Virus record (IMG/VR): IMGVR_UViG_3300019360_000147
Coordinates: 1 to 64,000 of that record
Strand: one strand, 5' to 3'
Source: a virus
Length of the DNA stretch: 64,000 bases
Positions 2,490 to 24,745 of this stretch are shown here, one piece after another. Under the pieces are notes generated by a model. The model worked only from the letters and a program-made list of their open reading frames with translations. It was not told where the DNA came from and made no database searches. Both the position numbers and the translations under genes were made by a program. Numbering within the stretch: the stretch's first letter is position 1; each line of letters opens with the position of its first letter.

Positions 2490-3602
2490 ATGGCGAGACC
2501 TAAGGTTCTGCTGATCTCTCCTCTGAGAGGAGCGGTCTCAGGGATCGAATCGGCGACGAGGATGATCCTCGACAGCCCGTTGGTGATCCACTGGGAGATC
2601 AGCCATCTCGATGCCTGGACCTCGCGGGCGAACCGTGAACGGGGCTGGCTGAGCTGGGGGAGCCTGCGGCGGTTCACGAAACTACTGTGGGTCGTGCGAC
2701 AGGCCGTGCGGGAAGTCAAGCCGCAGGTGGCGTGGATTCCGATGGCGAGCAATCGCCTGGGCTTCCTCAAGTTCGCGATGCTGGCAACGGTGGTCGGTGT
2801 CCCCGTGATCGGGAAGTATGGGGGGGACGCCTTCGCCACTTTCTACGCAACGCAGGCTGGTCCGGTGCGGGATCTGATCCGCACCGTCCTTCGCCGCTGC
2901 GCTGCGGTTCTCGTCGAAGCCGAATGTCTGATGCCCCAGTTCTACAGCCTCGTCCCCAGTTACAATGTTCGCTGGGCCCACCTCGGCCTCGACCCCGGCG
3001 CGTCTCCGCTCCAGCACCGGTCTCGACCCGCCAGGAATGTCCTCTTCATCGGCCACATCTCCCGGGCCAAGGGGGCCGTTGATTTGCTCGCCGCCATGCC
3101 TGCCGTCAGCAAAGCCATCCCCGGAGCCCGGCTTGTTCTCCTGGGGGAACACCTGCGGCGGGAGCGGAGCCTCGTGCATCTCCACGACCGGGACGCCGGC
3201 TGGCAGGCGGTCAAAGCGAGACCCGCGAACGTGGAAGCCCCTGGGATCCTGACCGGTCCGGCGAAGCGGCATGCGCTGGCGGAGGCGGATGTGTTCTGTC
3301 TGCCGTCGGCGTCGGAGGGGTTCCCTGTGGCGGTGTTGGAAGCGATGGCGGCGGGACTTCCGCTCGTGACCACGACTGCGGGAGCCATGGGCGAGGTCCT
3401 GAAGGACGGGGTGAATGTTCGCTTCGTGCCGTATGGAAACCCTGGGCGACTCGCCGAGGTGCTGAGCGACCTGCTGTCGCACGCGGGACGGTATGCCCGA
3501 CAGCGAATGGCAGCAGAGAATCGGCGGGCGGTGGAGGAAAGGTTCACGCTGGAATGCTTTGCGGAGGGAGTCCGGAAGGCCCTCGCGGATGTCGTGCGAT
3601 GA
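2490..3602 (+). CDS. GT4 family glycosyltransferase
   Basis: ADVFCLPSASEGFPVAVLEAMAAGLP (ExFxxxxxE motif) and FIGHISRAKG. Confidence 0.92.
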   Translation: MARPKVLLISPLRGAVSGIESATRMILDSPLVIHWEISHLDAWTSRANRERGWLSWGSLRRFTKLLWVVRQAVREVKPQVAWIPMASNRLGFLKFAMLATVVGVPVIGKYGGDAFATFYATQAGPVRDLIRTVLRRCAAVLVEAECLMPQFYSLVPSYNVRWAHLGLDPGASPLQHRSRPARNVLFIGHISRAKGAVDLLAAMPAVSKAIPGARLVLLGEHLRRERSLVHLHDRDAGWQAVKARPANVEAPGILTGPAKRHALAEADVFCLPSASEGFPVAVLEAMAAGLPLVTTTAGAMGEVLKDGVNVRFVPYGNPGRLAEVLSDLLSHAGRYARQRMAAENRRAVEERFTLECFAEGVRKALADVVR

Positions 3603-4297
3603 TTGCCTGGGTGCTTGGCGTCCCGATCTCGCGGCTCTCTGTGGATTCGACGCTCGGGTGTCTGACTGGATGGGTACGGGAGATGACGAGTCCCTGCGTC
3701 GTGAATCTCGTGAACGCCCACTCGGTCGTCGAGGCGCACAGGAACTCGGAACACATGCGGGCACTTCGCTGGTCACACATCAACCTCGCCGACGGCTGGC
3801 CGGTTGCTCGCATGGCCCGGGCGCCACGGATCGCAGGGGCTGATCTGATGCTCGCGGTCGCCCGGCATCCGGACCTGGGAAAGATGCGGCATGTGTTGCT
3901 GGGGGGATTCGGGGTGGCGTACACGGCGGCGATGCGGCAGTGCGTAGACGCGGCAGGGCACAGTCCGCTGAATCTGCGGTCGCCGGCTATTCCAGCCGCG
4001 GCTCCCGAGAGCAGCCTCCTCGAAATGGCGAACGGCCAACAGTGCGACATCCTCTGGGTCTCCCTCGGGTGCCCCAAGCAGGAAATCTGGATGCACGAGA
4101 ACCGGGACAAGCTGAAGGCCAAGGTCGTCATCGGCGTGGGGGCGGCATTCGATTTCCTCGCGGGGCGGGTTCGACGAGCTCCGGTCTGGGTGCAGCGGAT
4201 CGGACTGGAGTGGGCGTGGAGGATCTGGGCAGACCCGCAGCGGTGGCGTCGGCAGATCAGTGCCGTGATTGGGTTCGCCCGGTTGCTGCTTCGGTAG
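3599..4297 (+). CDS. WecB/TagA/CpsF family glycosyltransferase
   Basis: LVNAH, ADGWPV, RIAGADL, LGCPKQE, GVGAAFDFLAGRVRRAP, GLEW motifs. Confidence 0.95.
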   Translation: MIAWVLGVPISRLSVDSTLGCLTGWVREMTSPCVVNLVNAHSVVEAHRNSEHMRALRWSHINLADGWPVARMARAPRIAGADLMLAVARHPDLGKMRHVLLGGFGVAYTAAMRQCVDAAGHSPLNLRSPAIPAAAPESSLLEMANGQQCDILWVSLGCPKQEIWMHENRDKLKAKVVIGVGAAFDFLAGRVRRAPVWVQRIGLEWAWRIWADPQRWRRQISAVIGFARLLLR

Positions 4298-4903
4298 ATG
4301 GGCTGGCGCGTGTTCGACATCGTCGCCGGTCTGGTCGGCCTGATCATCTTCGCCCCGATCATCGCCCTGTGCGCGATCGCGACCGTGCTGGATTCCGGAC
4401 TGCCGCCGTTCAACGGGTCATGGAGGCTGGGGAAACATGGCACGCCCTTTCGGTGTTGGAAAATCCGGACGCTGAGGAATGACCACGAAGCCGTTCTTGC
4501 CAGACATCTTGCGACGTGCCCAGAAGCGCAGAAAGAGTGGGAGAGGTACGCGAAACTCAGTCACGATCCCCGTGTCACGCGAATCGGCGGATTCTTCCGC
4601 ACAACATCTCTCGACGAGATGCCGCAACTGTGGAATATCCTCCAAGGGAAGATGGCCGTCTTCGGCCCGCGGCCTTTCCTCTGTCGAGAGAGGACCCTGC
4701 TTGGAGTGTGGGCAGATGATTTGGCTGCGGTGCTCCCCGGCGTCATCTCCTACTACACCGCCCACGGCCGGAGCCGATTGCCCGTGGAACGGCGAATCAG
4801 GCTCGATGCGAAATTCGCGAGGCGGATGGCAAAGCCGGGCGTGAAGTGGCACGCACTGGTGCGGACGGTGAGGCGGTTGATCGACCGAAAGGGAGCCGTG
4901 TAA
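4298..4903 (+). CDS. initiating polyprenyl-phosphate sugar transferase (Bac_transf, WcaJ/PglC-like)
   Basis: R.FDI plus a hydrophobic helix; [37 protein letters not shown]. Confidence 0.93.
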
Positions 4904-5202
4904 TGGAGACCCCGCTCGATTTCTATGCCGACGGGTTCCAAGTGATCACGACGGCGTACGGGTGCAGCCTGAGCTTGGTGCGATCGTTGCCCGGGCCGCC
5001 CCGAATGGGCAAGACGCAAGAGGGCGAGGTGCTGGCCATCGCCCGCATGAGCCTGGAGCACCTGAAGTTGCTGATCTTTACCCTGCATCGGCAGCTCAGT
5101 CAGCACGAGCGGGAGCACGGGGTCGCGGTGGATGTGCCGCAGACCGCGCTGAACGGGATGCAGATCGGGCGGGAGGATTGGGAGAAGTTCTGGAGGGGAT
5201 GA
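4903..5202 (+). CDS. hypothetical protein (DUF3467-like)
   Basis: FYADGFQV...RMSLEHLKLL pattern; translationally coupled. Confidence 0.55.
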   Translation: METPLDFYADGFQVITTAYGCSLSLVRSLPGPPRMGKTQEGEVLAIARMSLEHLKLLIFTLHRQLSQHEREHGVAVDVPQTALNGMQIGREDWEKFWRG

Positions 5203-6134
5203 TGCGCGTGTTGTTGCTCATTGACAAGGCCGACTGGTCCTACCAGCAAATTGCCGAGGCTCTCGTTAAGCAGAATACGGATCGGAGTCTGGAATTGGAA
5301 ATCCTTGCCCTGAAAGGCCACACCAGATTGTTCCGATCAAAATATCTGGAGTATGATCGGACGCTTATATTCGGGCATCAGTTGCTGTCTATGATTCCCC
5401 CCCTTACCCGGTTCGTTATGAACGACGGGGATTGCCTCATTGGAATCCATAGTCATCATTCGTGGGATCCAGATCTCCGCACTACACCGGATGAAGATAT
5501 CGAGCCCCCAAGTCAACTCATCAGCACATTGAGAGGCTTTCGTGCCGTCAACTGCGTCTCGCAGCGGCTGTTCAATTTGTTCGCCGGTAGGGGACTCAAT
5601 CTATATCTCACCCCAAACGGCGTTGACTGCGACCGCTTCAAGCCGACGCAGCCGCTTTCGACCGAGGGACCACTGCGAGTTGGTGTGGCCTATACGCCGA
5701 AGCATGACAAACGCAAGGGGGTGGAGGAGTTCATTCGGCCCGCCTGTGAGAAGGTCGGGGCAATCCTCGTCGAGGCGAAGGCCCGGAGCGAGCAGCATGT
5801 GCGGCCGGAGGATATGCCCGCGTGGCACAATTCCTACGACGTGTATGTATGTGCATCCAGCTCGGAGGGATTTTCACTCGCGGTCCTCGAGGCCGCAGCC
5901 TGCGGGCGCCCGGTGATCTCGACGCGGGTGGGAGGGAGTACCGAGTTGATGAGACGCGTACATGATGGGTGTCTCGTAGACAGAACGTCCGATGCGATCG
6001 CAGAAGCACTCGTCCTATACCGAGATGATCGAATTCGGCTCGCCATGGATGGACTGAGCATACGAAGGCTTGTAGAGGAAGATTGGTCCTGGAAGCGGCG
6101 AGCAGTGGCATGGTTGGACTTCATGAGGAGCTAG
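5199..6134 (+). CDS. GT4 family glycosyltransferase
   Basis: TPNGVD; DVYVCASSSEGFSLAVLEAAACGRPVISTRVGG. Confidence 0.9.
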   Translation: MMRVLLLIDKADWSYQQIAEALVKQNTDRSLELEILALKGHTRLFRSKYLEYDRTLIFGHQLLSMIPPLTRFVMNDGDCLIGIHSHHSWDPDLRTTPDEDIEPPSQLISTLRGFRAVNCVSQRLFNLFAGRGLNLYLTPNGVDCDRFKPTQPLSTEGPLRVGVAYTPKHDKRKGVEEFIRPACEKVGAILVEAKARSEQHVRPEDMPAWHNSYDVYVCASSSEGFSLAVLEAAACGRPVISTRVGGSTELMRRVHDGCLVDRTSDAIAEALVLYRDDRIRLAMDGLSIRRLVEEDWSWKRRAVAWLDFMRS

Positions 6135-6138
6135 GATT

Positions 6139-6327
6139 ATGGAGGCCTGCAAGATTTGCGTGGAGCCGTGTACGGCCTGCGGGATGGATCCGCATGATCC
6201 CCGGTGTGGGATCTGCGGGATGCTGCACCAAGAGCCTGTGAGCCACGCCGGGGTGGCGTATTCGACCTGTGTGCGGTGTGGGAGGAGAGTATCGTCGCAG
6301 CGGCTGTTGACGTCCTCCCCGGACTGA
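6139..6327 (+). CDS. small Cys-rich protein, possibly truncated
   Basis: Four CxxC pairs; terminates inside the IS-end-like flank of array 2. Confidence 0.45.
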   Translation: MEACKICVEPCTACGMDPHDPRCGICGMLHQEPVSHAGVAYSTCVRCGRRVSSQRLLTSSPD

Positions 6328-6341
6328 AGTCCGGGGCGTCC
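6307..6341 (-). mobile_element. IS200/IS605 right-end-like hairpin (copy 1)
   Basis: Minus strand GGACGCCCCGGACTTCAGTCCGGGGAGGACGTCAA: a subterminal hairpin ending in TCAA. Identical to 10489-10523. Confidence 0.7.
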
Positions 6342-6362
6342 GCGCCCATGGAGAATCTGTGC

Positions 6363-6464
6363 GGCACAAGCGAATCCGAAACTCAGAGGGGATTGCGAGG
6401 CGCACGACCTCCGACTACATCCGCAAGCTCGCGGCACAATCGAACCCGAAGCTCAGAGGGGATT
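6363..6464 (+). CRISPR. satellite mini-array 2: 2 repeats, 1 spacer
   Basis: Repeats at 6363-6399 and 6433-6464 (truncated). Spacer GCGCACGACCTCCGACTACATCCGCAAGCTCGC. Confidence 0.93.
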
Positions 6465-6482
6465 TCTGATCAGAAAGGAGAG

Positions 6483-6514
6483 GTCAACTACCCCGCGCTA
6501 AAGTGCGGGGTCTC
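6483..6514. mobile_element. second IS200/IS605-type end remnant
   Basis: GTCAACTACCCCGCGCTAAAGTGCGGGGTCTC: a GTCAACTACCCC hairpin typical of IscB/TnpB-associated element ends. Confidence 0.6.
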
Positions 6515-6535
6515 TTGGCCGACTTTTTAGGAACT

Positions 6536-7180
6536 ATGAATCGACTCTGGTTTGACCTCGCCTTTCGCCGACGCGTGCGGGGGGAGATTCGGCGCTTGGG
6601 CCCGTGGTACCAACAGATTCAACTGCTGCCTGGCCTCTTTACCCGCCCGTGGAATCAGGCGACGATTGGGGAGTTGATTCACGCGGAACGGGGCGGACCG
6701 AAATTCCGAAGATTCCTGCTCCCAATGATCAAGCCGTATCTGCACGGGGGGACGGTTTTTGAGCTCGGCTGCAATGGCGCACAAATGCTCGTCTGCTGCC
6801 TGCGGCACGGAGCGGCCGAGGCATGGGGCGTCGAACCGGATGAGCGGTATCGCAAACAGGCCTGCCTAGTTCGGCAGTGCTTGGGCCTGCAACGACAATT
6901 GACGATCAGCAACCGGCCTCCGCTTGGTAAGAGTGTCGACATCGGTCTCATGTGTGCTGTTCTCCGGCATGTCGATCCCCTGGAGAGGGTGGGCGTGCTG
7001 CAGTCGATGGGTGAGTTCTGCAAGCGAGTGCTCATCAACGGCAATGGCTTATCGGACGCACCAGACGGGGATAGCATTGACTCGATTCTGCGGGATGTGC
7101 ACCGAACGAATCTGGTCGTTGAGGAGTTGCGATCCGAGCCGCATGTCCGCGGGCTGCGGATTCTGCTGAAGTCCCGATGA
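6536..7180 (+). CDS. class I SAM-dependent methyltransferase (CmoB/DUF1698-like)
   Basis: PWYQQIQL; VFELGCNGA...GVEPD SAM-binding motifs. Confidence 0.8.
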   Translation: MNRLWFDLAFRRRVRGEIRRLGPWYQQIQLLPGLFTRPWNQATIGELIHAERGGPKFRRFLLPMIKPYLHGGTVFELGCNGAQMLVCCLRHGAAEAWGVEPDERYRKQACLVRQCLGLQRQLTISNRPPLGKSVDIGLMCAVLRHVDPLERVGVLQSMGEFCKRVLINGNGLSDAPDGDSIDSILRDVHRTNLVVEELRSEPHVRGLRILLKSR

Positions 7181-7869
7181 TTCGTGAGATGCCCCTGGAG
7201 CGGCTGCTCAGCAAGGCGTTTCTGCGGCCGTGGCAGTTGAGTGAGTGTCACGCGGCACAATTGATCCTCGCTGGCCACACCGGCCTCGGCGGGACCCGGT
7301 TCGCCCACTTGCGGCTCGGTCTCCTGACGTGGGAGTCGCCTCACTGTGGGGAACTGCCGAAGGGCCTCGATGCCCCACTGCAGTACTGGGTGACTCCATG
7401 GCAGAGCAAGTTCCGTCGGCCGCTCAGCGTGGTGCAACGCGTCGAGCGGCGCCTGCGGTTCCGTCGGACGGTCTCCGACTTCCGCAAGTTGGTCCGCGTC
7501 ATGGACTGGAAGGGGTGGGTGGGGCCAGCGGTGCCGGGGATACTGCTGGTCGGCGGGGGATGGAAGGAAGTGGCAGGACCGAGGCAGGGCGATCCTGATC
7601 TTGTGCCGGAGTCGGCTGGCCGAGAGATTCCATTCAATCGGGATTCCTCCAGCGAATTATTTCTCCATACGGATGGCAACCGGAGAATTGGCATCGCAGC
7701 CGCAGTCGGAATTTTGAGAGTGCCGGTCAAGATCACCCCCCTGCTTACATTCGACTGGCAGGGGACGAGGGCGGCAGGGACGGGGCGATTCAGTGAGGGG
7801 GATACGCGGCGGATCTGGGAGCATGTGTGGGAACGCGTACTCCCCGACTATCGCAGGTCGGCACCATGA
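7177..7869 (+). CDS. ParB/Srx-fold-like protein
   Basis: HTDGNRRIGIAAAVGILRVPV resembles the DGxHR...GxxxVPV motif. Confidence 0.55.
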   Translation: MIREMPLERLLSKAFLRPWQLSECHAAQLILAGHTGLGGTRFAHLRLGLLTWESPHCGELPKGLDAPLQYWVTPWQSKFRRPLSVVQRVERRLRFRRTVSDFRKLVRVMDWKGWVGPAVPGILLVGGGWKEVAGPRQGDPDLVPESAGREIPFNRDSSSELFLHTDGNRRIGIAAAVGILRVPVKITPLLTFDWQGTRAAGTGRFSEGDTRRIWEHVWERVLPDYRRSAP

Positions 7870-8630
7870 AGCTGACTGTGCGGCAGAAGATCGTGCGCAG
7901 ACTGGCCCGGATCAAGACACGGATGGCATATCAGTGGGAACGACCGACGCATTGTTGGTGCGGCGGGGAATTGTTCAGGGATATGAACAGCCTCGACCCA
8001 TCCGTATCGGCCTGTTCGGTATGCTGGACGCGGGCACTGCGCCACAGACTTACCGAAGCATCGTATGCTCGCTGGTACGCGAGCGGGGACTACCGGCGGT
8101 ATGTAATGGGAACGAGCGGCGTGGCCATCGGACAGGTGATGAAGGAAATACGTCGGGCGGCCGCTGCCGTAAAGTTCCTCGGTGATCACGGGGTCGCCAT
8201 TCGCGGCACTTGGGTTCTCGATGTCGGATCCGGTGCTGGCGGTTGGTTGCTCGTGGCGAAACTTTTCGGTGCATGTCGGGTGGTGGGCGTGGATGTCGAT
8301 GATCGTTCACGGGCGGTTCCGTCTGAGTTCGGTCTCTCGGTACTCAAGGCCAGGCCTCAGGACGGTTTGTGGGACCGGATAATCTGTAGTCACATCATAG
8401 AGCACATCATACACCCGGTGGAATTCTTGAAGGACGTGCGTTCGGTCCTCGGCAGGAACGGGTGCCTCTACATCGAAACGCCAGCGTGGGGGCCGAAGGC
8501 GGAAGTGAAATTGCCGCATCCGTTTTACTACAGCCCCGACTCGTTGCGGCTCTTGGCGACGCGGGCGGGATTGGAAGTGGTGGCCATGACGGATGGAATT
8601 CAGGCGGTGCTGCGGAGGCTGAGCAGCTAA
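7866..8630 (+). CDS. class I SAM-dependent methyltransferase
   Basis: VLDVGSGAG, VGVDVD, HIIEHIIHP, LYIETP. Confidence 0.9.
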   Translation: MKLTVRQKIVRRLARIKTRMAYQWERPTHCWCGGELFRDMNSLDPSVSACSVCWTRALRHRLTEASYARWYASGDYRRYVMGTSGVAIGQVMKEIRRAAAAVKFLGDHGVAIRGTWVLDVGSGAGGWLLVAKLFGACRVVGVDVDDRSRAVPSEFGLSVLKARPQDGLWDRIICSHIIEHIIHPVEFLKDVRSVLGRNGCLYIETPAWGPKAEVKLPHPFYYSPDSLRLLATRAGLEVVAMTDGIQAVLRRLSS

Positions 8631-8639
8631 CAGACAGTA

Positions 8640-9608
8640 ATGAAGAGAATTTGCTATCTGACAGATTCATTGTCGTGGATCCAAGCCCAGCGGGCCAAGG
8701 ACCTCCAGCCGTATCTTCCGGAGTACGCACTCATCCCGATGCTCCCGACTGATGCCCTTCGATACGCCCCGATCATCTTGGCCTATTACGACGCGGTATG
8801 GTTCGCCTCTTGGCGAATCATACTGGCAGAACCGAGGCTCATGGACGCATTGAATCTGTCTGCCTGCATGGCATCCGTGACCAGCCACTACCACATCGGC
8901 GGTGGCCTCAAGCCGGAGACGTGCTTTCGGAAGGGGACTGATCCCGACCAGGAATTCACCAAGGCCATCGAGGTGCTGACACGCTTCCGGCTCGTCACAT
9001 GCAACTCGAAGATTCTGTACGACCTCCTTTCGCCCCATCTGCCGGAGCTCGTGCTGGCGCAGAATGGGGTCGATGCGGAGTTCTTTCACCCATCAGCCGA
9101 GGGGCATCACTGGTTCGACAGACGTGTCATCTTCCCCTCCGTTGGCTGGGTGGGGAAGGACAAGGGGGCCAAGAATCTGGCGATATTCATGGAGGCGTAC
9201 CGGAAAATCGACGGGCCCTGGCCCCTGTTTCCCATGGTCGTTCCCAAGAAGCGGGGCGGGCCAGTGAAGACGCGGGGGGGGATGCGGAACTTCTACTGGC
9301 AGACGGATTTCCTCGCCTGTACGAGCTGGCACGAAGGCACGCCGAATCCGGCGCTGGAGGCTGCGGCATGTGGTCTACCAATTATCACCACAAGGGTAGG
9401 CAACATGCCAGAGTTCGTGACCGAAGGCGGTACCGGCTGGTTTATCGAACCGACAGCCGAGAGCCTGATCGCCTGCATAGAGCGGTTGAAGGAGATCACG
9501 CCTGAACAATACCGCCGCATGTCTCAGGCCATTCGGACCGAGATCGAAATGCACTGGACCTGGTCGAAGCGGGCCGTGGCGTATCGGAAGGCACTGGAGA
9601 CGCTATGA
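8640..9608 (+). CDS. GT4 family glycosyltransferase
   Basis: QNGVD; TSWHEGTPNPALEAAACGLPIITTRVG. Confidence 0.9.
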   Translation: MKRICYLTDSLSWIQAQRAKDLQPYLPEYALIPMLPTDALRYAPIILAYYDAVWFASWRIILAEPRLMDALNLSACMASVTSHYHIGGGLKPETCFRKGTDPDQEFTKAIEVLTRFRLVTCNSKILYDLLSPHLPELVLAQNGVDAEFFHPSAEGHHWFDRRVIFPSVGWVGKDKGAKNLAIFMEAYRKIDGPWPLFPMVVPKKRGGPVKTRGGMRNFYWQTDFLACTSWHEGTPNPALEAAACGLPIITTRVGNMPEFVTEGGTGWFIEPTAESLIACIERLKEITPEQYRRMSQAIRTEIEMHWTWSKRAVAYRKALETL

Positions 9609-10432
9609 TCCCCCCCCAGAACGTCTCCGAGGCCGTCTACCGCCGGGAGGTGGCGAAGCGGATCGGCCTATGTCGGCGGATCATCGCAGAGGACTGGATG
9701 CGTTTCCGTCCACTGATTCGGCTTGTCGTGCTGAGTTGCAAGCGCCCCAAGGAATTGGCGAGGCTCATGGATGGCTTGGTGCATATGCCATCGAACGAGC
9801 CGAAGATCTTTGCAACCCTGCTGGTTGATAACGGCTCAGGCGAAGCAGTGAGGCGCATCGCCGAGTCCTACGGATTCTTTGGTGATATGATCCTGCATGA
9901 GGCGAATATTGGTATGGGGGCGGCGCTCAATGGCGCACTCAGCAGTTTCCCGGCTGAGTTCATTCTCTTCATCGAGGACGATTTGGTTCTGGAGCGTCCG
10001 GGATTCCTGAGGGGCTGCTTGGACATCTTTCGCGAGTTCCAAGAGATCGGCCTCATCAAGCTCAAGCGCAAGGACGCCTGGGACGAGAAGCCCTACCGGC
10101 GCATCGGCCCCATGCAAACCACGACCACGGGCGTTCGGTTCCATCCGTGGCTGCCGTCCCCCCGGGGGTCCTTCCGGTGGGGCCAGCGCCCGTGGTATCC
10201 AGTCGGAGTGCACAACGTATGGAGCCTCGGACCGGTGATGTTCCGCTGGTGTGCGTGGAAAGAGGCCGGACCGATCCAGACTGGGCAGGGCAGGGGACAG
10301 GCCGTGGCGGCGGAGGAGGTGTACGCCCGCACATTCAATCAGCGGTGGCTGGCGGCGAGACCTGTTGATATTCAGCCGTTCTCGCAACCGGAGACGTTAG
10401 AGAGTCCGGGGTTCAGGGATGAGATCGCATAG
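9605..10432 (+). CDS. GT2 family glycosyltransferase
   Basis: VLSCKRP, LVDNGS, ILFIEDD. Confidence 0.85.
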   Translation: MIPPQNVSEAVYRREVAKRIGLCRRIIAEDWMRFRPLIRLVVLSCKRPKELARLMDGLVHMPSNEPKIFATLLVDNGSGEAVRRIAESYGFFGDMILHEANIGMGAALNGALSSFPAEFILFIEDDLVLERPGFLRGCLDIFREFQEIGLIKLKRKDAWDEKPYRRIGPMQTTTTGVRFHPWLPSPRGSFRWGQRPWYPVGVHNVWSLGPVMFRWCAWKEAGPIQTGQGRGQAVAAEEVYARTFNQRWLAARPVDIQPFSQPETLESPGFRDEIA

Positions 10433-10488
10433 GGCCAAGCGCATGGCGCAGAGCGGCGAATCTGCGGTGGCGGTAGAGAAGATAGAGA

Positions 10489-10523
10489 TTGACGTCCTCC
10501 CCGGACTGAAGTCCGGGGCGTCC
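10489..10523 (-). mobile_element. IS200/IS605 right-end-like hairpin (copy 2)
   Basis: Identical to 6307-6341; identity between the copies begins exactly at TTGAC. Confidence 0.7.
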
Positions 10524-10544
10524 GCGCCCATGGAGAATCTGTGC

Positions 10545-10719: not shown

Positions 10720-10752
10720 TCTGATCAGAAAGGAGAGAGGAGACGAACCGCG

Positions 10753-17282: not shown

Positions 17283-17611
17283 CGTTTCTTTTCGACGTGG
17301 ACGGCACGATCTGCAGCACCGACGGGACCGACTACGGCGGTGCCACGCCGATCCCCGAGATGGTGGACATCATCCGCGACTTGTATGGCGCGGGGCATAC
17401 GATCTACTTCATCACTGGGCGGGGCTTCATGGGGGGTGTCCACAAGGCGGAGACAATGCGACGGCGGACGCGGAAGCAGTTGGACGAATGGGGGGTGCCC
17501 TACCACGGGGTGTACAGCAAGCCCGCCGCGGACCTTGCGGTTGACGATACGGGCGTGAGTGCGGCAGACTTCAGGCTGCTCGTCCGGCTTCTGGGCAAGG
17601 AGCCAGTGTGA
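17279..17611 (+). CDS. HAD-family capsule-biosynthesis phosphatase-like protein
   Basis: FDVDGTIC; TGRG; KPAADLAVDD. Confidence 0.85.
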   Translation: MTFLFDVDGTICSTDGTDYGGATPIPEMVDIIRDLYGAGHTIYFITGRGFMGGVHKAETMRRRTRKQLDEWGVPYHGVYSKPAADLAVDDTGVSAADFRLLVRLLGKEPV

Positions 17612-18315
17612 TCGAACGCCTGATACGCCTCTTCAGGCCCAAGAAGATTCTGCGACCGCACCTGCACCCTCCAGACTACATCGGGCGACATGCGGGCCTT
17701 CCCTTTCTTGTGCTTGGGAGTGGCCCATCCATTCAGACCCACCGTGGCATTATCGATGCGTTCGTCCAGGATCGGAATCCCGTCGTACTGACGGCGAACG
17801 TGCCGCATCCTGTCTGGGGCCCGGCCATGAACCGAACCCAATACGTCGGCTTCACGAATCGGCGACGGCTGGGGCAAGCCCGAATCTTTCCGTCGCTTCA
17901 GGACACGCCTTGCCTGATCGGCCCCCATATCCGCAGCCGCCATATCTGGATGCGTTCGTGGGAGCGGATGCCGTTCGTGGATGATTCCGACGCCCCGTTC
18001 GATATCGTGGACGGGGTTGTCCAGTGCAGTTGCCATGAGTGTGGGTGGTTGCTCGTGGCCGTGGCCTGGATTATGGGATCGAGCGAGATCTGGATGGCGG
18101 GCGTGGACGGGTACAGTCGCGAGAAGGCGAACCACTTCTACGAGCAAGAGGACTACAGCATCAATCGTTCGTTGGCCAGACAGGCACGGATACAGTCCGA
18201 GCTGCTGCCGCAGATGCGACGGTGCTTTGAGAGTGCCCAGGTTCGGGGTCCATTCTTCCTCACGCCAACGCTCTATGGCCCGGTGGAGGCAGACGATGCG
18301 CGAGTGCCAGGCTGA
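17608..18315 (+). CDS. DUF115/MptE/Maf-like protein
   Basis: LVLGSGPS; MGSSEIWMAGVDGY..HFY. Confidence 0.65.
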   Translation: MIERLIRLFRPKKILRPHLHPPDYIGRHAGLPFLVLGSGPSIQTHRGIIDAFVQDRNPVVLTANVPHPVWGPAMNRTQYVGFTNRRRLGQARIFPSLQDTPCLIGPHIRSRHIWMRSWERMPFVDDSDAPFDIVDGVVQCSCHECGWLLVAVAWIMGSSEIWMAGVDGYSREKANHFYEQEDYSINRSLARQARIQSELLPQMRRCFESAQVRGPFFLTPTLYGPVEADDARVPG

Positions 18316-19048
18316 CGCATGCGATTGGGAAAGGGCCAGGACCCTCGGCATTATCCCCGCCCGCTGGGGCAGTACCCGGTTCCCCGGCAAGGTCCTCGCC
18401 GACATCGGGGGAAAGCCAATGCTCTGGCACGTGTATCAGCGGTGCTTGGAAGCGAAATGCCTCCATGAGATCATGGTCGCGAGCGACGACGGGCGGGTCA
18501 TGGAGGCCTGCCGCGAACTGGAGATTCCCGCAGTCTTGACCTCACAGACTCATCGCGACTGCATTGATCGTGTGGCCGAGGTGGCGAGACGGGAGCCAGC
18601 GGCCTTGTATGTCTGTATCCAAGGCGATGAGCCGTGTATCTCCCCGGAAGCCATCCGGCGTGTGAAAGCAGTTGGTTTGACCGAATCGCTGCCCGTCTGC
18701 GGTTGTGCGGTCATCACCGATCCTGCCGATCTCGTGGACGTGACGGTCCCCAAGGTCGTCCTGGGATCGGGGGACAGGGCGATCTACCTCTCCCGCAGTC
18801 CGGTCCCCTATCTGCACTCTCGGTCAGTGCCCTACCGGAGTCAGGTGTGTGTGTACGCCTTTCATGCCGACGATCTCCTGTGGTTCGCCAACACCCCGGC
18901 GGGTCCGCTGGAGCAGGCCGAGCGTATCGGCCTCCTGCGATTCTTAGAGCACCACGTCCCGGTCAAGATGGTGGACGTGCCAGCCTCGCCGGTCGCGGTG
19001 GATACCATGGCGGATCTGGAACGGGCACGGGAGATTTTGAAGACGTGA
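18296..19048 (+). CDS. kdsB: 3-deoxy-manno-octulosonate cytidylyltransferase-like
   Basis: IIPARWGSTRFPGKVL; DRVAE; QGDEP; YLSRSPVP; LEQAE; AVDT..DL. Confidence 0.9.
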   Translation: MRECQADACDWERARTLGIIPARWGSTRFPGKVLADIGGKPMLWHVYQRCLEAKCLHEIMVASDDGRVMEACRELEIPAVLTSQTHRDCIDRVAEVARREPAALYVCIQGDEPCISPEAIRRVKAVGLTESLPVCGCAVITDPADLVDVTVPKVVLGSGDRAIYLSRSPVPYLHSRSVPYRSQVCVYAFHADDLLWFANTPAGPLEQAERIGLLRFLEHHVPVKMVDVPASPVAVDTMADLERAREILKT

Positions 19049-19785
19049 TCCCGTTGCGTCGATTGACCCGCGAAGCCGCTCGCTGCGTCCTCGCTGGCCC
19101 GTCTCTTGGCAGTATGGGGCGCCGGCTGGCGTTCGCTCCGCTCAGACTGTGGCTGACGAACCCAAGACTGGCCTTGCTGTTCGTGGCGGTTCGACCGTAC
19201 ACGATGCTGCCGTATGCCCGGCTGAGCAAGTTGGCAGAGCTCGCAGACGAGTGCAATCGCAACGGGATTCCTGGAGCGTTTGTCCAGTGCGGGGTGTGGA
19301 AGGGGGGCAGTGCAGCCGTGCTGGTGGCTCTGGCCAACGGCCGACCCGTCGAGTTATTCGACACGTTTGCTGGTTGTCCAGCGCCTGAGCCGAAAGATAT
19401 CTCCGTCCACGACCGGCCCGGTCACGCCGGTGAGGCTGCGGCTGGGATGGAGTTCATCCTCCGCGTATTGGACAGGCTGGGCCTGAACGATCCCACGGTG
19501 CGGGTTTATCCTGGCCTGATCGAAAGAACCGTCCCGTTGGCGAAGGAGGGCATCGACCGAGTCGCCCTGCTACACCTTGATTGCGACTGGTACTCCGCTA
19601 CACGAACTGCCATGGAGGAGTTGTATCCCCGACTGGAGCACGGGGGATACGTCTTTGCCGACGACGCGGGATATTGGCCATCATCCCTAGAGGGAATCGA
19701 ACAGTATTTCCTGATGCGGGCAAGTGATGTACCACCACTGACCTGGGTGGACCATACGGGAGCATATTGGCGAAAGACCGAGTAA
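19045..19785 (+). CDS. TylF/MycF/NovP-family sugar O-methyltransferase
   Basis: IPGAFVQCGVWKGGS; FDTFAG; LHLDCDWY; GGYVFADD. Confidence 0.9.
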   Translation: MIPLRRLTREAARCVLAGPSLGSMGRRLAFAPLRLWLTNPRLALLFVAVRPYTMLPYARLSKLAELADECNRNGIPGAFVQCGVWKGGSAAVLVALANGRPVELFDTFAGCPAPEPKDISVHDRPGHAGEAAAGMEFILRVLDRLGLNDPTVRVYPGLIERTVPLAKEGIDRVALLHLDCDWYSATRTAMEELYPRLEHGGYVFADDAGYWPSSLEGIEQYFLMRASDVPPLTWVDHTGAYWRKTE

Positions 19786-19803
19786 TCCGGTTCCGCCTGC
19801 GCT

Positions 19804-20358
19804 GTGCTGGGAACGGATCCCCGTACTATACCGTCAGGCGAAAAGAGGACGACCACGGGCCAGGGGATCCTCTCGGCGTGTACGACAGATTTGAGGCGGT
19901 TGCTGGCCTTCCGCCGCAAGGTCCGGGCTGCTGGCCTGCGGATCGTCGGACCGGACTGGACGCCCATCGAGGCCATACGCATTCCTCGCCCCGATGCGTG
20001 GTTCGCGGGCCAGAGCGAGTCCCCGTGGCGGACCGTGTTTGATACCCCGCATTACAAGTTGCTGACGGTGCAGCATGGGACGTGGTGGAACCTGCGTGAA
20101 ACAGATTACTGGGCGTGGCAGCGGTCGATTCGTGGACTGGATCACTCGCGGCCGGACGACTGGATAGCGGCGATGGCGGAGCGACTGAAACGCTTGCAAT
20201 CTTCGATCCATGGTGAGGGCTATCGGCTGCGGTCGGTGGCGGACCGGATCGCGGTCATGGAGGGTGGCACGCTGTGGGACGGCGGGCATCGGCTGGCGTG
20301 TTTGGCGGCTGAGGGATGGGTGCTGGTGCCGGTGGTGGTGGTGCGGTCGAATGACTAA
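19804..20358 (+). CDS. ParB/Srx-fold-like protein
   Basis: LQSSIHGEGY...LWDGGHRLACLAAEGWVLVPV; start uncertain. Confidence 0.6.
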   Translation: MLGTDPRTIPSGEKRTTTGQGILSACTTDLRRLLAFRRKVRAAGLRIVGPDWTPIEAIRIPRPDAWFAGQSESPWRTVFDTPHYKLLTVQHGTWWNLRETDYWAWQRSIRGLDHSRPDDWIAAMAERLKRLQSSIHGEGYRLRSVADRIAVMEGGTLWDGGHRLACLAAEGWVLVPVVVVRSND

Positions 20359-20364
20359 ACCGCA

Positions 20365-21828
20365 ATGAAAGTCCTTTTTGTGTTACCGCAGGTCGGTGCC
20401 GCCGTGCCAAGTTACCATGCCATCTCCATTCTTTCTGCCGTGGCAAAAGCGAACGGCCACGAGACCGCCTTGCTGGAGATGCCGGAGATGCGGCTGCAGG
20501 CTGTGGCCGAGGCGATTGCACAGCACGATCCCGCCGTGGTCGCGATTACGTCGGTGACACAACAGATCCCGTATAGCACGCACATCATCGCCCACGTCAA
20601 GCAAAAGTTCCCGCGCATCTACACGGTGTTAGGAGGGACCCATGCCATCGTCAGACCTCACGTCATTGACGACATTGCTGGACTGGATGCTCTGGCCACG
20701 AACGAATCAGAAGGTCCACTTGTTGATCTCTTATCGGCGCTCGACGCGGGGCGGACCCCGACTGACATTCCGAACTTTGCCTTTCGGGTAGGCGGACAAG
20801 TGCTTCGCCCTGTCCGGACGTACTCCTGCACGGAAGAGGAAATGACCTCGTTGCCGTTCGAGGATCGAGAGCTGTTCCCCCGGTGGAGAAACACGCCCAA
20901 AGGGCTGCCGCTGGAGTCGCTGGGCATCCGGCCAAGGTTCTGGATCAGCCGCGGGTGCATGTACCGTTGTGCCTTCTGCAGCCTCCCAACCCTTCGGGCC
21001 CAGTACCCCGTCAAGAACTTCGTCCGCTACCCCACGGCTGAGCGCGCGATCGCTGAGATCGAATCCGTAGCCGACCGCTGGACCTTCGGGACCTATCTCA
21101 TAGACGACGACGTCTTCCTGCACCGTCCGAAGTGGGTGGTCGAGGAGTGGGCAGCGAAATACCCGGACAGGCTGAAGCATCTCCGGTACGAGGTCCAGGT
21201 GCGGGTGGAGGCCGCGACCGAGGACGGCATCCGGGCCTTGAAGGACACCGGATGCAGCCTTGCCAAGTTCGGGCTGGAGAGCGGGGACTTCGCCTACCGG
21301 AAGCATGTCTATGATCGGAACGTGACGGACGAGCGGATCCTGGACGTGTTCGAGATGTGCCGGAAGCACGGGCTGAAGGCGCACACGTTCAATATCCTCG
21401 CCGGCCCCGATGAGACCCGGCGCCAGGTGTGGAGGACGGTGCGGATGAACCAGCGCCTCAAGCCGGATCGCTGCCAGATTTCGATTTTTGCCCCCTACCC
21501 AGGCACACCGCTTGGGGACAAGATGGCGCGGGAGGGGCGGGTGCTGAAGCACGTCAATAACTACTTCGAGGAATCGCCATTGGATTTGCGGACGATGAAA
21601 CCGTGGGAGGTCAAGCTGTACTTTCGCTTCTTCCGGCTGGCTGTCTATCTCGCCTACTCCCCCCGCCGAGCCTGGTCCGAGCTCGTCGGCCTTGTGAAGT
21701 GGCTGCGGGACAAGATCAGACGGCGGCGGACGCGGTACGACCTGGAGGCGGAAAGCACGCGGGTCGGGGGAGGTGCGGTGATCCTGCAAGGGGACGCACC
21801 GGTGCTCAACCAGCCGTGGACTCCATGA
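20365..21828 (+). CDS. B12-binding radical SAM protein
   Basis: SRGCMYRCAFC (CxxxCxxC); N-terminal GGTHA; GLESG; PYPGT. Confidence 0.93.
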   Translation: MKVLFVLPQVGAAVPSYHAISILSAVAKANGHETALLEMPEMRLQAVAEAIAQHDPAVVAITSVTQQIPYSTHIIAHVKQKFPRIYTVLGGTHAIVRPHVIDDIAGLDALATNESEGPLVDLLSALDAGRTPTDIPNFAFRVGGQVLRPVRTYSCTEEEMTSLPFEDRELFPRWRNTPKGLPLESLGIRPRFWISRGCMYRCAFCSLPTLRAQYPVKNFVRYPTAERAIAEIESVADRWTFGTYLIDDDVFLHRPKWVVEEWAAKYPDRLKHLRYEVQVRVEAATEDGIRALKDTGCSLAKFGLESGDFAYRKHVYDRNVTDERILDVFEMCRKHGLKAHTFNILAGPDETRRQVWRTVRMNQRLKPDRCQISIFAPYPGTPLGDKMAREGRVLKHVNNYFEESPLDLRTMKPWEVKLYFRFFRLAVYLAYSPRRAWSELVGLVKWLRDKIRRRRTRYDLEAESTRVGGGAVILQGDAPVLNQPWTP

Positions 21829-22418
21829 ATCCCCATCTCCACTACTCCCGCGATACCAGCCAGGAGGGCCAGTTCGACCCGGCCATGCCCTGGTTTGGCC
21901 GCGTGGCTCCGCTTCTGACTTCGCTCCCTCCATGCACCGTGGCCCTGGATGTGGGTTGCAACAGCGGGGGGTTGGGAGAACGTCTGACCGCTCACGGCTG
22001 CTCGGTGGTTGGGGTAGACCTTGCCATGCAATTCCTCCCCCGTGCCGTCAAGAAAGGCTACGTGGGTGCAATCCAGGCCGATGCCCAGGCGCTTCCCTTT
22101 CGAGACGGCAGCTTCCCCGTGGTCATCCTGTCGGAGATCCTGGAGCATGTCCCGGATGCCGAGCGGTGCGTGGCGGAAGCGGCCCGGGTCCTGATGCCGC
22201 ACGGGTGGCTACTCGGGGACGTCCCGACGTGGTTCGGGCGGTGGGGGCTGCGGAGCTTGCGTGGGCACAAGTGGCACGTACGAACCCTCTCCGAACGCAG
22301 ATTGCGGGCATTGTTAGGGGCGCATCTTGAGGTGGCCCACGTGTCGTACAGGCGGGCGTCATTGACTGCGGGGTACCTCCTGCCCCAGTGGGTGCACTTC
22401 AAGGCCACGAAGCGATGA
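21825..22418 (+). CDS. class I SAM-dependent methyltransferase
   Basis: LDVGCNSG; ADAQALPF; EILEHV. Confidence 0.9.
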   Translation: MNPHLHYSRDTSQEGQFDPAMPWFGRVAPLLTSLPPCTVALDVGCNSGGLGERLTAHGCSVVGVDLAMQFLPRAVKKGYVGAIQADAQALPFRDGSFPVVILSEILEHVPDAERCVAEAARVLMPHGWLLGDVPTWFGRWGLRSLRGHKWHVRTLSERRLRALLGAHLEVAHVSYRRASLTAGYLLPQWVHFKATKR

Positions 22419-23038
22419 CGACCGTGGGTCGTGCTGCCAAACGCTGGACCGGCAAAGAGCTGGCCCGGGGAGTCGATCGCTACCGCCGATACCTCGCCCT
22501 GTTCGGACTGACCGAGGACAGTTTCAAATACCAGACCGTTTGCCACGTGGGGTGCGGCCCCCTTGGTGGCGTCCTCTCCGTCCTCCGCGGTGTGCACTCC
22601 GCCTACCGGGTTGACCGCGATGTGGATATCTACCGCGGGATGGGGTGCTGCCCCGACTGCGGGATCGTTCGAGACCTGCACCACTTCCGCATCCTCACAC
22701 GGGAGGCGCCGCTCCTTCCGATCCATCGGCGGACCGGCCGCTCGCCCGTTCCGTCGGAGAGTTGTGATGCCGTGTTCTGTCTTGGGGACATCAACGATAC
22801 GCCGTGGCTCGTCACCCTCGAACATGAGTTGCGGCGGATCTGCAAGGCGGGCGGGCGGCTGTATTTGTGGTGGCGGGTCGCGGACGGCAATGCTCCGGGC
22901 GTCCGGTCGGAGCGCGTTCGGCGGATCTTTAAAGACAGCCGGTGGATGTGGGGCACGGTCAGTCAGGGAGCCGATCTGCCGAACCTGTTCCCGGCCGTGA
23001 AAGCGATGTGGACGGTGTTGACGCGGGTCAGGGAGTAA
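22415..23038 (+). CDS. methyltransferase-like protein
   Basis: HVGCGPLG; CDAVFC; RICKAGG. Confidence 0.7.
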   Translation: MTTVGRAAKRWTGKELARGVDRYRRYLALFGLTEDSFKYQTVCHVGCGPLGGVLSVLRGVHSAYRVDRDVDIYRGMGCCPDCGIVRDLHHFRILTREAPLLPIHRRTGRSPVPSESCDAVFCLGDINDTPWLVTLEHELRRICKAGGRLYLWWRVADGNAPGVRSERVRRIFKDSRWMWGTVSQGADLPNLFPAVKAMWTVLTRVRE

Positions 23039-24246
23039 ACACGGTAGGAGGGTTGTGAGCAGTTGATGGAAAAGTTGAAAGCCTACAAGACCGAGCTTGA
23101 CCCCAACAACGTCCAGCGAACCTTGCTGGCAAAACATGCTGGCGCTGCGCGGTTCGCCTGGAACTGGGCGCTCGGTCGCCGTATCGAGGAATACAAACCC
23201 ACAGGCAAGTCAAGTAATGTCATCGAGCAGCATCGGCAGTTGAACGCGCTGAAATCGACCGAGTTCCCCTGGATGTACGAGGTCAGCAAGTGTGCCCCGC
23301 AAGAAGCACTGCGAGACTTGGACAAGGCGTTCAGGAACTTCTTTGCGAAGCGAGCCAAGTATCCAAGGTTCAAGAGCAAGAAGCGTGGCCTGGGCGGGTT
23401 TCGCCTGACAGGCAGCATCACCATCGAAGCAGATAGGATCAAGTTGCCTCGCCTTGGCTGGTTGCGCCTGAAGGAATCGGGATACCTGCCGACAGACGCC
23501 AAAATCAACAGCGTCACTGTCAAAGAACGGGCGGGGCGCTGGTTTGTTAGCGTCCAGGTTGAGGAGCGGTTTGCCGTCACCGAAAACCAAGGTCCGGCAA
23601 TCGGCCTTGATCTGGGCCTGAAGTCGTTCGTGGTTGGTTCTGATGGATCGTCTCTTGAATCGCCGAAGCCTCTCCTGCGATCGCTCAGGCGATTGCAGAG
23701 GTTAGCCAGGCAACACTCTCGAAAACAGAAAGGATCAATGAATCGTCGCAAGTCGGCGAAGCGACTTGCCACACTGCACTACCGGATCAGCTGCCAACGC
23801 GCTGACTTCATCCATAAGGCCACAAGTGAACTGGCAAAAACCAAGTCAGTTATCGTGGTTGAGGATTTGAATGTCGGCGGGATGCTCAAGAATCGCTGCC
23901 TTGCTAGGCCCATCGGCGATGCTGGATGGTCTGAGTTCGTCAGGCAGCTTGAGTACAAGTCGGCGTGGAATGGCGGTAGCGTGGTCAAAGCTGGCAGGTT
24001 CTACCCGTCCACGAAAACATGTTCGGCTTGTGGCATGATCAAGGACGAAATGCCATTGTCCGTGAGGACATATTGTTGCGGCGGTTGCGGGCTAGTCATC
24101 GACCGGGACGTGAACGCCGCAAGGAACCTTGTGAGACTGAGTACCGTCAGTTCGACGGGATTTCAAGCCTGTGGAGATTCGCCGTTGGGCGGGTCCGCGA
24201 AGCAGGAACCGAGCGTCATGAACAATGAGTAAGTTTCGGAGAACGG
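23034..24246 (+). mobile_element. non-autonomous IS607-type TnpB element
   Basis: tnpB only. The right end AAGTTTCGGAGAACGG ends in GG and the left flank ends in AGGG. Removing the segment restores an ATGA gene overlap. Confidence 0.65.
23066..24232 (+). CDS. tnpB: RNA-guided endonuclease TnpB
   Basis: N-terminal HTH (ARFAWNWAL); RuvC GLDLG, VVEDL and DRDVNAARN; CSAC/CGGC Zn finger. Confidence 0.96.
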   Translation: MEKLKAYKTELDPNNVQRTLLAKHAGAARFAWNWALGRRIEEYKPTGKSSNVIEQHRQLNALKSTEFPWMYEVSKCAPQEALRDLDKAFRNFFAKRAKYPRFKSKKRGLGGFRLTGSITIEADRIKLPRLGWLRLKESGYLPTDAKINSVTVKERAGRWFVSVQVEERFAVTENQGPAIGLDLGLKSFVVGSDGSSLESPKPLLRSLRRLQRLARQHSRKQKGSMNRRKSAKRLATLHYRISCQRADFIHKATSELAKTKSVIVVEDLNVGGMLKNRCLARPIGDAGWSEFVRQLEYKSAWNGGSVVKAGRFYPSTKTCSACGMIKDEMPLSVRTYCCGGCGLVIDRDVNAARNLVRLSTVSSTGFQACGDSPLGGSAKQEPSVMNNE

Positions 24247-24253
24247 CGAGTCC

Positions 24254-24745
24254 ATGATCTACGTCGGCGTCGAGAACAGCCCGGTCAAGGTCCGTATTGC
24301 GACTCGGGCACCAGCCAGGACCCTCTCCGTGGATCCCGCCGATCTCGCCTGGGACTGTCAGCGGCATATCGAGTTCCTGCTGGATGCGGAGAGGCACCTG
24401 AAGGACGGGTGGAAGGAAGCGTGGATGATCCGGACTGCCTACGCGGGCTGGATGCTGCAAGCGGGGAGGACGCACGGGGCGGTGCTGGCCCGGTGTCGGC
24501 GATTCTTGGAGCGGGTGGCGGAGATCCGGTTGCATGGTTTGGATGGACCCTGGGCGGTGGTGACGGTGGACGGAATACGGCTGGACGGGTCGCATCGGGC
24601 GGCGATTGCGGTGGTGCTTGGAGAGGACGCGGTGCCTGTGGCCGAGGTGCCGTACCTGGATGACGACGCGCGGTGGCGTCGGGAAGCGGTGGCGTATCGG
24701 GCCAAGAGGATTCGGGACGGGAGTGCGGCGGGAGCGAACCCGTGA
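24254..24745 (+). CDS. ParB/Srx-fold-like protein
   Basis: RLDGSHRAAIAVVLGEDAVPV. Confidence 0.6.
   Translation: MIYVGVENSPVKVRIATRAPARTLSVDPADLAWDCQRHIEFLLDAERHLKDGWKEAWMIRTAYAGWMLQAGRTHGAVLARCRRFLERVAEIRLHGLDGPWAVVTVDGIRLDGSHRAAIAVVLGEDAVPVAEVPYLDDDARWRREAVAYRAKRIRDGSAAGANP

Follow-up and report, generated by a model that had tools for sequence, protein, structure and literature searches.

A putative lipid-linked glycan assembly pathway on a phage contig, with a Maf-like branch among the virion genes

The viral record IMGVR_UViG_3300019360_000147 consists of one 73,725-base contig, the first 64,000 bases of which form the stretch analyzed here (the window). Its left third is occupied by a cluster of glycan biosynthesis genes, and two smaller islands of glycan genes lie within the virion module farther to the right. 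Seventeen genes between positions 2433 and 22418, all on the plus strand, matched families in Pfam or NCBIfam at E<1e-5, the threshold for a firm match in the cluster; phage families were assigned with PHROGs. Taken together with the islands, about twenty phage genes appear to build, methylate, export, and attach a lipid-linked sugar chain. The genes of the cluster are as follows.

2433-3602, plus strand: family 4 glycosyltransferase (GT4), first gene of segment A (2433-6134)
3554-4297, plus strand: WecG/TagA (141 bits)
4298-4903, plus strand: Bac_transf phosphoglycosyl transferase (137 bits; C-terminal region of WbaP, E 5e-53)
4962-6134, plus strand: GT4
6503-7180, plus strand: methyltransferase-like gene (TIGR04290, E 7e-8), opening segment B (6503-10432)
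7177-7869, plus strand: open reading frame (ORF) without firm family match
7827-8630, plus strand: Methyltransf_23 gene
8640-9608, plus strand: GT4
9605-10432, plus strand: family 2 glycosyltransferase (GT2)
10753-11532, plus strand: weak GT2-like ORF (E 0.0012)
11593-12693, plus strand: 366-residue ORF without firm family match
12690-13673, plus strand: epimerase/reductase closest to GDP-fucose synthase, the sole short-chain dehydrogenase/reductase present
13838-14662, plus strand: PseF-like cytidylyltransferase
about 14665-15555, plus strand: NeuB-family synthase (Pfam NeuB, 216 bits) without SAF domain
15552-17282, plus strand: ATP-binding cassette (ABC) exporter with fused transmembrane and nucleotide-binding domains, MsbA/HepA/ABCB-like (Pfam, NCBIfam)
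17258-17611, plus strand: small HAD-IIIA phosphatase with an intact DVDGT motif
17608-18315, plus strand: ORF without firm family match
about 18340-19048, plus strand: KdsB (NF003952, 220.3 bits against a cut-off of 193)
about 19100-19785, plus strand: TylF O-methyltransferase
19804-20358, plus strand: ORF without firm family match
20365-21828, plus strand: B12-binding radical S-adenosylmethionine (SAM) enzyme
about 21830-22418, plus strand: Methyltransf_11 gene
22388-23038, plus strand: weak methyltransferase-like ORF without firm family match

The Pfam and NCBIfam matches confirmed the gene list of the original prediction (a phosphoglycosyl transferase, WecG/TagA, glycosyltransferases, an epimerase, NeuB, KdsB, a HAD phosphatase, an exporter, methyltransferases, and a B12 radical SAM enzyme), and all of these genes share the plus-strand orientation of the virion module, as had been proposed. 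The range given for the pathway, 2490 to 24745, does contain the glycan genes, and it also takes in a TnpB gene (23063-24232) and an unassigned ORF (24254-24745) that are not glycan genes. The small ORFs scattered among the glycan genes are not shown to be phage-like, since the HAD protein was the only one of the cluster ORFs submitted that matched a PHROG family, and what interrupts the cluster is two CRISPR-like (clustered regularly interspaced short palindromic repeat) mini-arrays. The claim that the locus goes far beyond a gtrABC-type conversion cassette is borne out, in that the set is well larger and its gene content differs in kind from a gtrABC seroconversion cassette, with no GtrA-type family in the Pfam scans.

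Several cluster genes have features that bear on their likely functions. The phosphoglycosyl transferase combines its Bac_transf match with a single N-terminal hydrophobic helix, which identifies it as an initiating transferase of the monotopic type. The ABC exporter scores under every NCBIfam equivalog cut-off and is, by its sequence, a candidate flippase. Between four and six methyltransferases are present, TylF included, in addition to the B12 radical SAM enzyme. The Pfam NeuB match places the synthase among NeuB/PseI/LegI-type enzymes, and its best solved relative is a 290-residue sialic acid synthetase (6NCS, E 1e-32); that of the HAD phosphatase is annotated as a "capsule biosynthesis protein" (9IQW, E 1.6e-8). 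The product sugar may be a nonulosonate, and NeuB with a small HAD phosphatase would presumably also fit a KDN-type (2-keto-3-deoxynononic acid) route of the kind known from Bacteroides. Six ORFs, starting at 7177, 10753, 11593, 17608, 19804, and 22388, have no firm family. A PDB sequence search with the ORF at 11593 returned no match, and among the Atlas look-alikes of the region 10753-13673 is a putative O-antigen biosynthesis family (score 0.95), which is a lead only.

The original prediction also held that the virion module adds further glycan genes, and an MptE/Maf-like gene, a second TylF gene, a GT-A-like gene, and a Wzy_C gene were indeed found there. They lie in two islands, one between the terminase and portal genes (34582-45278) and the other downstream of the capsid gene (51047-53918).

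Island 1: coiled-coil protein
39239-40270, plus strand: serine-rich 343-residue protein (23% Ser+Thr, VSxLSQ-type repeats)
40271-41713, plus strand: 480-residue fusion of an MptE/Maf-like domain and a class I methyltransferase (PF01973, 54.5 bits against 34.6)
within ORF 41422-42483, plus strand: TylF methyltransferase domain (266 bits)
42480-43385, plus strand: 301-residue ORF without family
43355-44104, plus strand: 249-residue GT-A-like protein (phrog_28018) with a DCD motif
about 51383-52303, plus strand: signal-peptide protein (island 2)
52325-53686, plus strand: Wzy_C/WaaL-like multi-pass membrane protein (Wzy_C, 46 bits against a cut-off of 31.7; island 2)

The Wzy_C family match and a WaaL-like fold place the protein of island 2 among periplasmic ligases, polymerases, or oligosaccharyltransferases. 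Its structural model (predicted local distance difference test, pLDDT, 82.3) has WaaL (7TPG, E 1.6e-4) as best fold match, followed by FtsW and RodA, and residues R259 and H305-N306 are invariant across 30 aligned sequences. The protein is very isolated, with five of 1.84 billion representatives exceeding 50% identity, and a PDB sequence search with it gave no match.

The Maf-like fusion of island 1 has both the PF01973 domain and a Maf-like fold. Its model (pLDDT 80.7) matches the Maf structure 5MU5 best (E 5.5e-7), at 16% sequence identity, and also matches human ST6GALNAC2 (E 3e-4). Pfam scans found no flagellin gene on the contig, and the Maf-like gene lies between the terminase and portal genes, directly after the serine-rich protein, which has a fibre-like appearance and is a candidate glycosylation target. 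The Maf-like/methyltransferase family has at least 1,148 homologues, mostly on phage-sized contigs (those listed share about 60% identity), and the number of viral-contig stretches carrying it is estimated at 2,700. Among 80 fetched loci (L004-L083), a homologue of the GT-A-like gene occurs along with the Maf-like fusion in 51 and a capsid homologue occurs in 21, a few kilobases upstream in the 36-40 kb contigs that were checked. An identical Maf-like protein (P0063) is listed on a 63,045-base contig rather than on the 73,725-base one, which suggests that nearly the same phage was assembled a second time. The possibility that the two TylF genes are recent duplicates was rejected, their identity being only 30%.

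What the data show directly are gene families, folds, gene order, and the linkage of the cluster to the phage lineage; how the steps follow one another, which lipid carrier, sugars, and two acceptors take part, and what the system does biologically are inferred. The monotopic phosphoglycosyl transferase would prime polyprenyl phosphate and start the sugar chain, which WecG/TagA, three GT4 enzymes, and one or two GT2 enzymes would extend on the cytoplasmic face of the membrane. Class I, TylF, and B12 radical SAM methyltransferases would decorate the chain. KdsB would supply cytidine monophosphate (CMP)-activated 3-deoxy-D-manno-octulosonic acid (CMP-Kdo), and NeuB, the cytidylyltransferase, and the HAD phosphatase would supply a CMP-activated nine-carbon keto-sugar. 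The ABCB-type exporter would then flip the finished lipid-linked glycan, and the WaaL-like Wzy_C protein, although encoded in the virion module, would ligate or polymerize it on the periplasmic face. The outcome would be a changed host envelope, with lysogenic conversion, masked receptors, or the exclusion of other phages as the effect. Since virion assembly takes place in the cytoplasm and the membrane route faces the periplasm, the lipid-linked route is assigned to the host envelope. In a second route, the Maf-like fusion, the second TylF enzyme, and the GT-A-like enzyme could glycosylate a virion protein with the CMP-sugar made by the cluster; because this branch needs no lipid carrier and adjoins the serine-rich protein, it is the better candidate for virion glycosylation. 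The original prediction had offered host-surface conversion or virion decoration as alternatives, and the genes favor no single choice, suggesting instead both, by two separate routes.

The remainder of the contig has the content expected of a tailed phage, with terminase, portal, major capsid, and lysis genes all on a single contig. The plus strand carries nearly all convincing genes, and almost all 2-kb windows show a positive GC skew. The landmarks outside the glycan genes are listed here, with genome coordinates for those beyond the window.

1-2.4 kb: small ORFs and a repeat array
1405-1758, plus strand: small ORF, first of two before the glycan genes
1755-2168, plus strand: small ORF, second of two before the glycan genes
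2.4-22.4 kb, plus strand: glycan cluster
24.3-28.8 kb: small ORFs left of the integrase, two of them (26920-27543 and 27692-28405) in PHROG families
29018-30172, plus strand: tyrosine integrase (Pfam; phrog_1, E 1e-49)
32918-34582, plus strand: large terminase subunit (phrog_2, E 6e-22)
45278-47521, plus strand: P22-like portal (Pfam, PHROGs)
49291-50283, plus strand: major capsid protein (Pfam, PHROGs)
62526-68048 (genome), plus strand: 1,840-residue virion protein, one of several further structural genes after the capsid gene
68.0-69.3 kb: lysis cassette of holin-like membrane ORFs and a cell-wall hydrolase (PHROG endolysin matches, Hydrolase_2)
after a second TnpB-like gene, toward the right contig end: small regulators

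The product of 1755-2168 is a predicted lipoprotein with a glycine zipper (Gly-zipper_OmpA, E 1e-4) and an N-terminal LAGC lipobox judged by eye, and may be an exclusion or envelope protein. The 1,840-residue virion protein contains an HSP90/histidine-kinase-like ATPase domain near residues 405-559. The portal is distant from those of cultured phages, with at most about 25% identity over most of its length among the matches listed, and a DNA comparison of the head region with phage records gave only two 2% matches. No housekeeping family was found among the scanned ORFs, which comprised all plus-strand ORFs of at least 90 residues and a few chosen ones. Source labels on homologues, the only evidence on this point, make a Gram-negative host from the Pseudomonadota probable.

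Three CRISPR-like arrays share a 37-nt repeat that occurs in 13 copies on the plus strand and separates 10 unique spacers of 32-35 nt. They are listed below with the TnpB-related genes of the window.

9-671, plus strand: first ORF, 5'-open where the contig begins and immediately ahead of array 1
854-1386, plus strand: array 1, 8 repeats and 7 spacers of 32-35 nt
6363-6469, plus strand: mini-array 2, leader from 6307 (element 6307-6482), 2 repeats and 1 spacer
10545-10724, plus strand: mini-array 3, leader from 10489 (element 10489-10740), 3 repeats and 2 spacers
23063-24232, plus strand: IS200/IS605-type TnpB with a helix-turn-helix domain (guided_TnpB, 322 bits against a cut-off of 100)

These elements have the regular direct repeats, unique spacers of similar size, and degenerate last repeat of CRISPR arrays. 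Arrays 2 and 3 share the same 63-bp leader. The degenerate last repeat of each array extends into the ribosome-binding site of the gene that follows (1405, about 6503, and 10753), which gives the arrays the look of leaders to three operon segments. Promoter-like and terminator-like sites in positions 1-12000 numbered 1 (2.4 expected) and 2 (6.9 expected), respectively. The predicted fold of the repeat is not notable (z -0.85), and Rfam gave no match for the window at the gathering threshold or for array 1 at the E-value threshold. Spacer 3 of array 1 (1033-1067) matches positions 50886-50920 at 34 of 35 bases, within a structural gene of the phage itself (ORF 50328-51047), and the single mismatch, at spacer position 3, is a synonymous change in a His codon. 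The other nine spacers have no match on the contig, and none of the 10 matches any of 87 fetched loci. This near-self spacer fits either a phage array directed against close rivals or a host array that the phage has escaped.

Apart from two TnpB/Cas12f-like ORFs and the 5'-open first ORF, no cas genes were found on the contig, and PADLOC returned only TnpB/Cas12f-type and coiled-coil matches. The TnpB at 23063 was considered as an effector of the arrays and dropped, being an ordinary IS200/IS605 TnpB by NCBIfam. The second TnpB-like gene (genome 69491-70591) is divergent and is the sole clear minus-strand gene; the two TnpB-like proteins are about 25% identical to each other. ORF 9-671 has collinear matches to OrfB_IS605 (E 0.089, residues 96-154) and Cas12f1-like_TNB (E 0.0046, residues 163-190) that are not significant, nor are its BLASTP matches to the two TnpB-like proteins (E 0.12-0.15). 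This ORF may represent the 3' portion of a TnpB/Cas12-derived gene that the contig end truncates, which is a lead only.

The reading preferred here, of a cluster carried by a temperate tailed phage of an uncultured host, which builds a lipid-linked glycan for the host envelope and is accompanied by a cytoplasmic Maf-like branch, is judged as a whole to have a slightly better than even chance of being correct. Several observations weigh against it. The integrase sits between the cluster and the virion module, at a possible prophage-host junction; the contig has no terminal direct or inverted repeats, no tRNA or tmRNA, no att-like long direct repeats besides the arrays and the one spacer match, and no recognized replication genes. 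The pathway itself has gaps, as neither Wzx nor a chain-length regulator turned up in the Pfam scans. The fold match of the Wzy_C protein is modest (template modeling score 0.42-0.46), such that ligase, polymerase, and protein O-oligosaccharyltransferase are not separable. NeuB scores 223 against 399.65 and 169 against 340.25 under NCBIfam equivalog cut-offs, the cytidylyltransferase reaches 66 bits in the PseF model against a cut-off of 205.7 (CTP_transf_3, 47.7 bits against 22.6), and the Pfam and NCBIfam scans contained none of the precursor families NeuC, PseB/C/H/G, or LegB/C/H/G. The nonulosonate of the earlier proposal is suggested by a sub-cut-off NeuB and a weak cytidylyltransferase match. 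Both islands are missing from an 11-kb relative (L002; portal 52% and terminase 46% identical), in which the gap between terminase and portal measures 269 bases, compared with 10.7 kb in the window, and the island genes are accessory on that account. Finally, the Maf-like/methyltransferase family occurs very widely, and no target of it is known in any phage.

The point on which the reading first depends, that the cluster is carried by the phage, is nevertheless considered highly probable. The competing explanation is that the prophage begins at the integrase, near 29 kb, and that the cluster, arrays, and TnpB are untrimmed host chromosome. This would account for the position of the integrase exactly between the cluster and the packaging genes, for the lack of a terminal repeat, for the slightly lower GC content of the cluster (0.59-0.65, compared with 0.61-0.69 in much of the virion module), and for a spacer that nearly matches the phage, which would be natural in a host array. 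Against it stands the linkage of the cluster to the phage lineage in relatives. The portal has 17 non-self homologues (46-91% identity), and the radical SAM gene has a parallel series (54-87% identity). Portal homologues on contigs of 90,660 bases (P0010, 50%) and 96,128 bases (P0008, 53%) are paralleled by radical SAM homologues (P0035, 61%, and P0037, 54%) on contigs of exactly these sizes from the same sources. Two exact coincidences of size and source are not credible by chance, and the portal and radical SAM genes therefore occur together on one contig in relatives with a portal identity to the window of only 50-53%; on the other side, this linkage rests on matched contig sizes. All 15 non-self radical SAM homologues of at least 54% identity lie on contigs of at most 96,128 bases, none above 50% identity was found on a contig larger than 100 kb, and the first one on such a contig, a large bacterial contig of 5.87 Mb, is only 42% identical. 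One homologue in the series (P0041) carries intein and LAGLIDADG domains. Searches of viral contigs with the portal as a single protein and with the radical SAM alignment gave no match, as did the portal alignment against genome contigs.

Other evidence on this point comes from gene content. Pfam matched no housekeeping family in 1-29 kb, and PHROG-family ORFs occur left of the integrase and among the glycan genes of relatives. The metagenome contigs L084 and L085 have GT4 homologues that are 75 and 82% identical, and both keep the GT4-WecG-transferase-GT4 order of segment A (at 55-75% identity in L084). In both, phrog_4652 ORFs adjoin or split the glycan genes at differing places, which is typical of phage mosaicism. 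The 37-nt repeat was found in no viral, genome, or metagenome contig searched and is absent from 185,579 species genomes, and the virion module itself encodes enzymes predicted to need the CMP-sugar of the cluster. On balance, a host origin of the left part of the contig is very unlikely. The contig ends were also examined. The right end consists of (GGGTCG)x16.5, a tandem repeat (genome 73603-73701) that probably caused the assembly break; the left end does not continue it, and the frame that would run into ORF 9-671 stays open across it. Nothing convincing was found among T-loop-like motifs near the integrase. The earlier suggestion to confirm the phage boundaries therefore yielded neither a terminal repeat nor an att site, and indirect linkage favors the phage: the virus contig with its terminase, portal, capsid, and lysis genes and the shared contigs of two distant relatives support carriage, whereas neither a sign of circularity nor an att site was found and the integrase lies between the cluster and the virion module.

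If phage carriage is granted, the purpose of the pathway can still be read differently. One explanation is that the whole set serves to glycosylate capsid or fibre proteins in the manner of mycobacteriophages and chloroviruses, with the host surface not a target. The Maf-like, methyltransferase, TylF, and GT-A-like genes do lie within the structural region beside the serine-rich protein, the methyltransferase and GT-A-like pair adjoins the capsid gene in many viral contigs of 36-40 kb, and virion glycosylation has been reported in mycobacteriophages (Freeman et al., 2023, as cited in the available text of PMC12619734). It is an unlikely explanation for the set as a whole, because three of its members, the membrane-bound phosphoglycosyl transferase, the ABC exporter, and the WaaL-like protein with its multiple membrane passes, point to a lipid-linked glycan that reaches the periplasmic face. 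The cytoplasmic assembly of virions argues in the same direction. Another explanation, that the product is an exported methylated glycolipid or small glycosylated metabolite rather than a surface polymer, draws on the fact that TylF, B12 radical SAM C-methyltransferases, and ABCB exporters are common in the tailoring of secondary-metabolite sugars. No polyketide, nonribosomal peptide, or aglycone genes were found, and the phosphoglycosyl transferase, WecG/TagA, GT4, and KdsB are the usual parts of a polysaccharide locus, which makes this explanation highly improbable. A more ambitious reading would extend the preferred one into a self-sufficient two-route system, with a methylated Kdo/nine-carbon envelope glycan and Maf-type modification of a virion fibre. 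In this extension, the phage's own CRISPR arrays would head the operon segments and work with the TnpB/Cas12-derived protein beside array 1 against rivals of the same lineage, the carrier would escape by the synonymous mismatch at spacer position 3, and inter-phage warfare and surface remodeling would form one expression unit. All of these parts holding together seems rather unlikely.

The interest of the locus lies in the scale of the pathway on a phage, in the widespread Maf-like/methyltransferase family, and in arrays that serve as apparent operon leaders. If the preferred reading of a phage-carried envelope-glycan pathway is correct, phages can import a whole new surface antigen rather than edit an existing one, which would bear on how serotypes evolve, on arms races over phage receptors, and on superinfection exclusion in uncultured bacteria. 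For glycoengineering, such a pathway would offer a compact glycan assembly line on one mobile element. The Maf-like/methyltransferase family, which is very common in viral contigs without a known target, deserves a study of its own.

Phages are known to alter the surface sugars of their hosts by means of one to three genes, a few add sugars to their own virions, and cyanophages carry large lipopolysaccharide-type gene sets. Among cellular systems, the Helicobacter Wzk/WaaL and Campylobacter PglK routes combine an initiating transferase, cytoplasmic glycosyltransferases, an MsbA-like flippase, and a Wzy_C-family ligase or oligosaccharyltransferase. By analogy, the logic proposed for the window would fit these ABC-flippase routes, with the difference that all components here are phage-borne and divided between a cluster in the early region and the virion module. 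The Maf flagellin transferases, represented by 5MU5, share PF01973 and the fold of the protein in island 1, which differs in being fused to a methyltransferase and in lying among phage structural genes with no flagellin near. A parallel to this branch is found in the Caulobacter phage CcrColossus, whose gp129, a "putative nucleotide-diphospho-sugar transferase," is 33% identical to the GT-A-like protein (43355-44104; E 4e-34) and, as in the window, adjoins a methyltransferase-domain homologue (36%). The surrounding gp126-gp131 are annotated with an alpha-2,3-sialyltransferase and a GT9, with tail and lysis genes nearby, their functions being known from annotation only. CcrColossus differs in being a lytic phage of 280 kb, and no lipid-linked pathway, exporter, or NeuB is annotated in the 8.6 kb that was read.

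The temperate phages D3 of Pseudomonas (Wzy-beta) and VarioGold of Variovorax (VG_p25) carry a Wzy_C protein beside a secreted protein, according to the available text of PMC9658991, and the accessory multi-pass Wzy_C protein described here (52325-53686) likewise adjoins a signal-peptide protein (51383-52303). As described there, those phages edit or re-polymerize an O-unit made by the host, using one to three genes, whereas the present contig also encodes an initiating transferase, at least five glycosyltransferases, sugar-nucleotide enzymes, methyltransferases, and an exporter. Viral mini-arrays directed against related viruses are described, in the portion of PMC11656645 available, as carrying repeats identical to those of the host. 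The arrays of the window resemble them in being short, virus-borne, and provided with a spacer matching a virus of the same kind, and differ in that the repeat was found in no collection searched, that they head glycan operon segments, and that the near-match is to the phage's own gene. Phage enzymes that edit nonulosonic acids have been described (PMC12053666, PMC6586298, in the sections available), as has glycosylation of mycobacteriophage virions (Freeman et al., 2023, in the same partial source, PMC12619734). In tblastn searches of 50,697 phage records, an initiating transferase was found in 38 and a NeuB-like protein in three (one of them doubtful, the other two from large uncultured viruses); no record matched the Wzy_C protein at E 1e-5. 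Set beside the phage systems already described, these counts indicate that the kind of system is known, and that what is new is its completeness and composition in a temperate phage of 74 kb.

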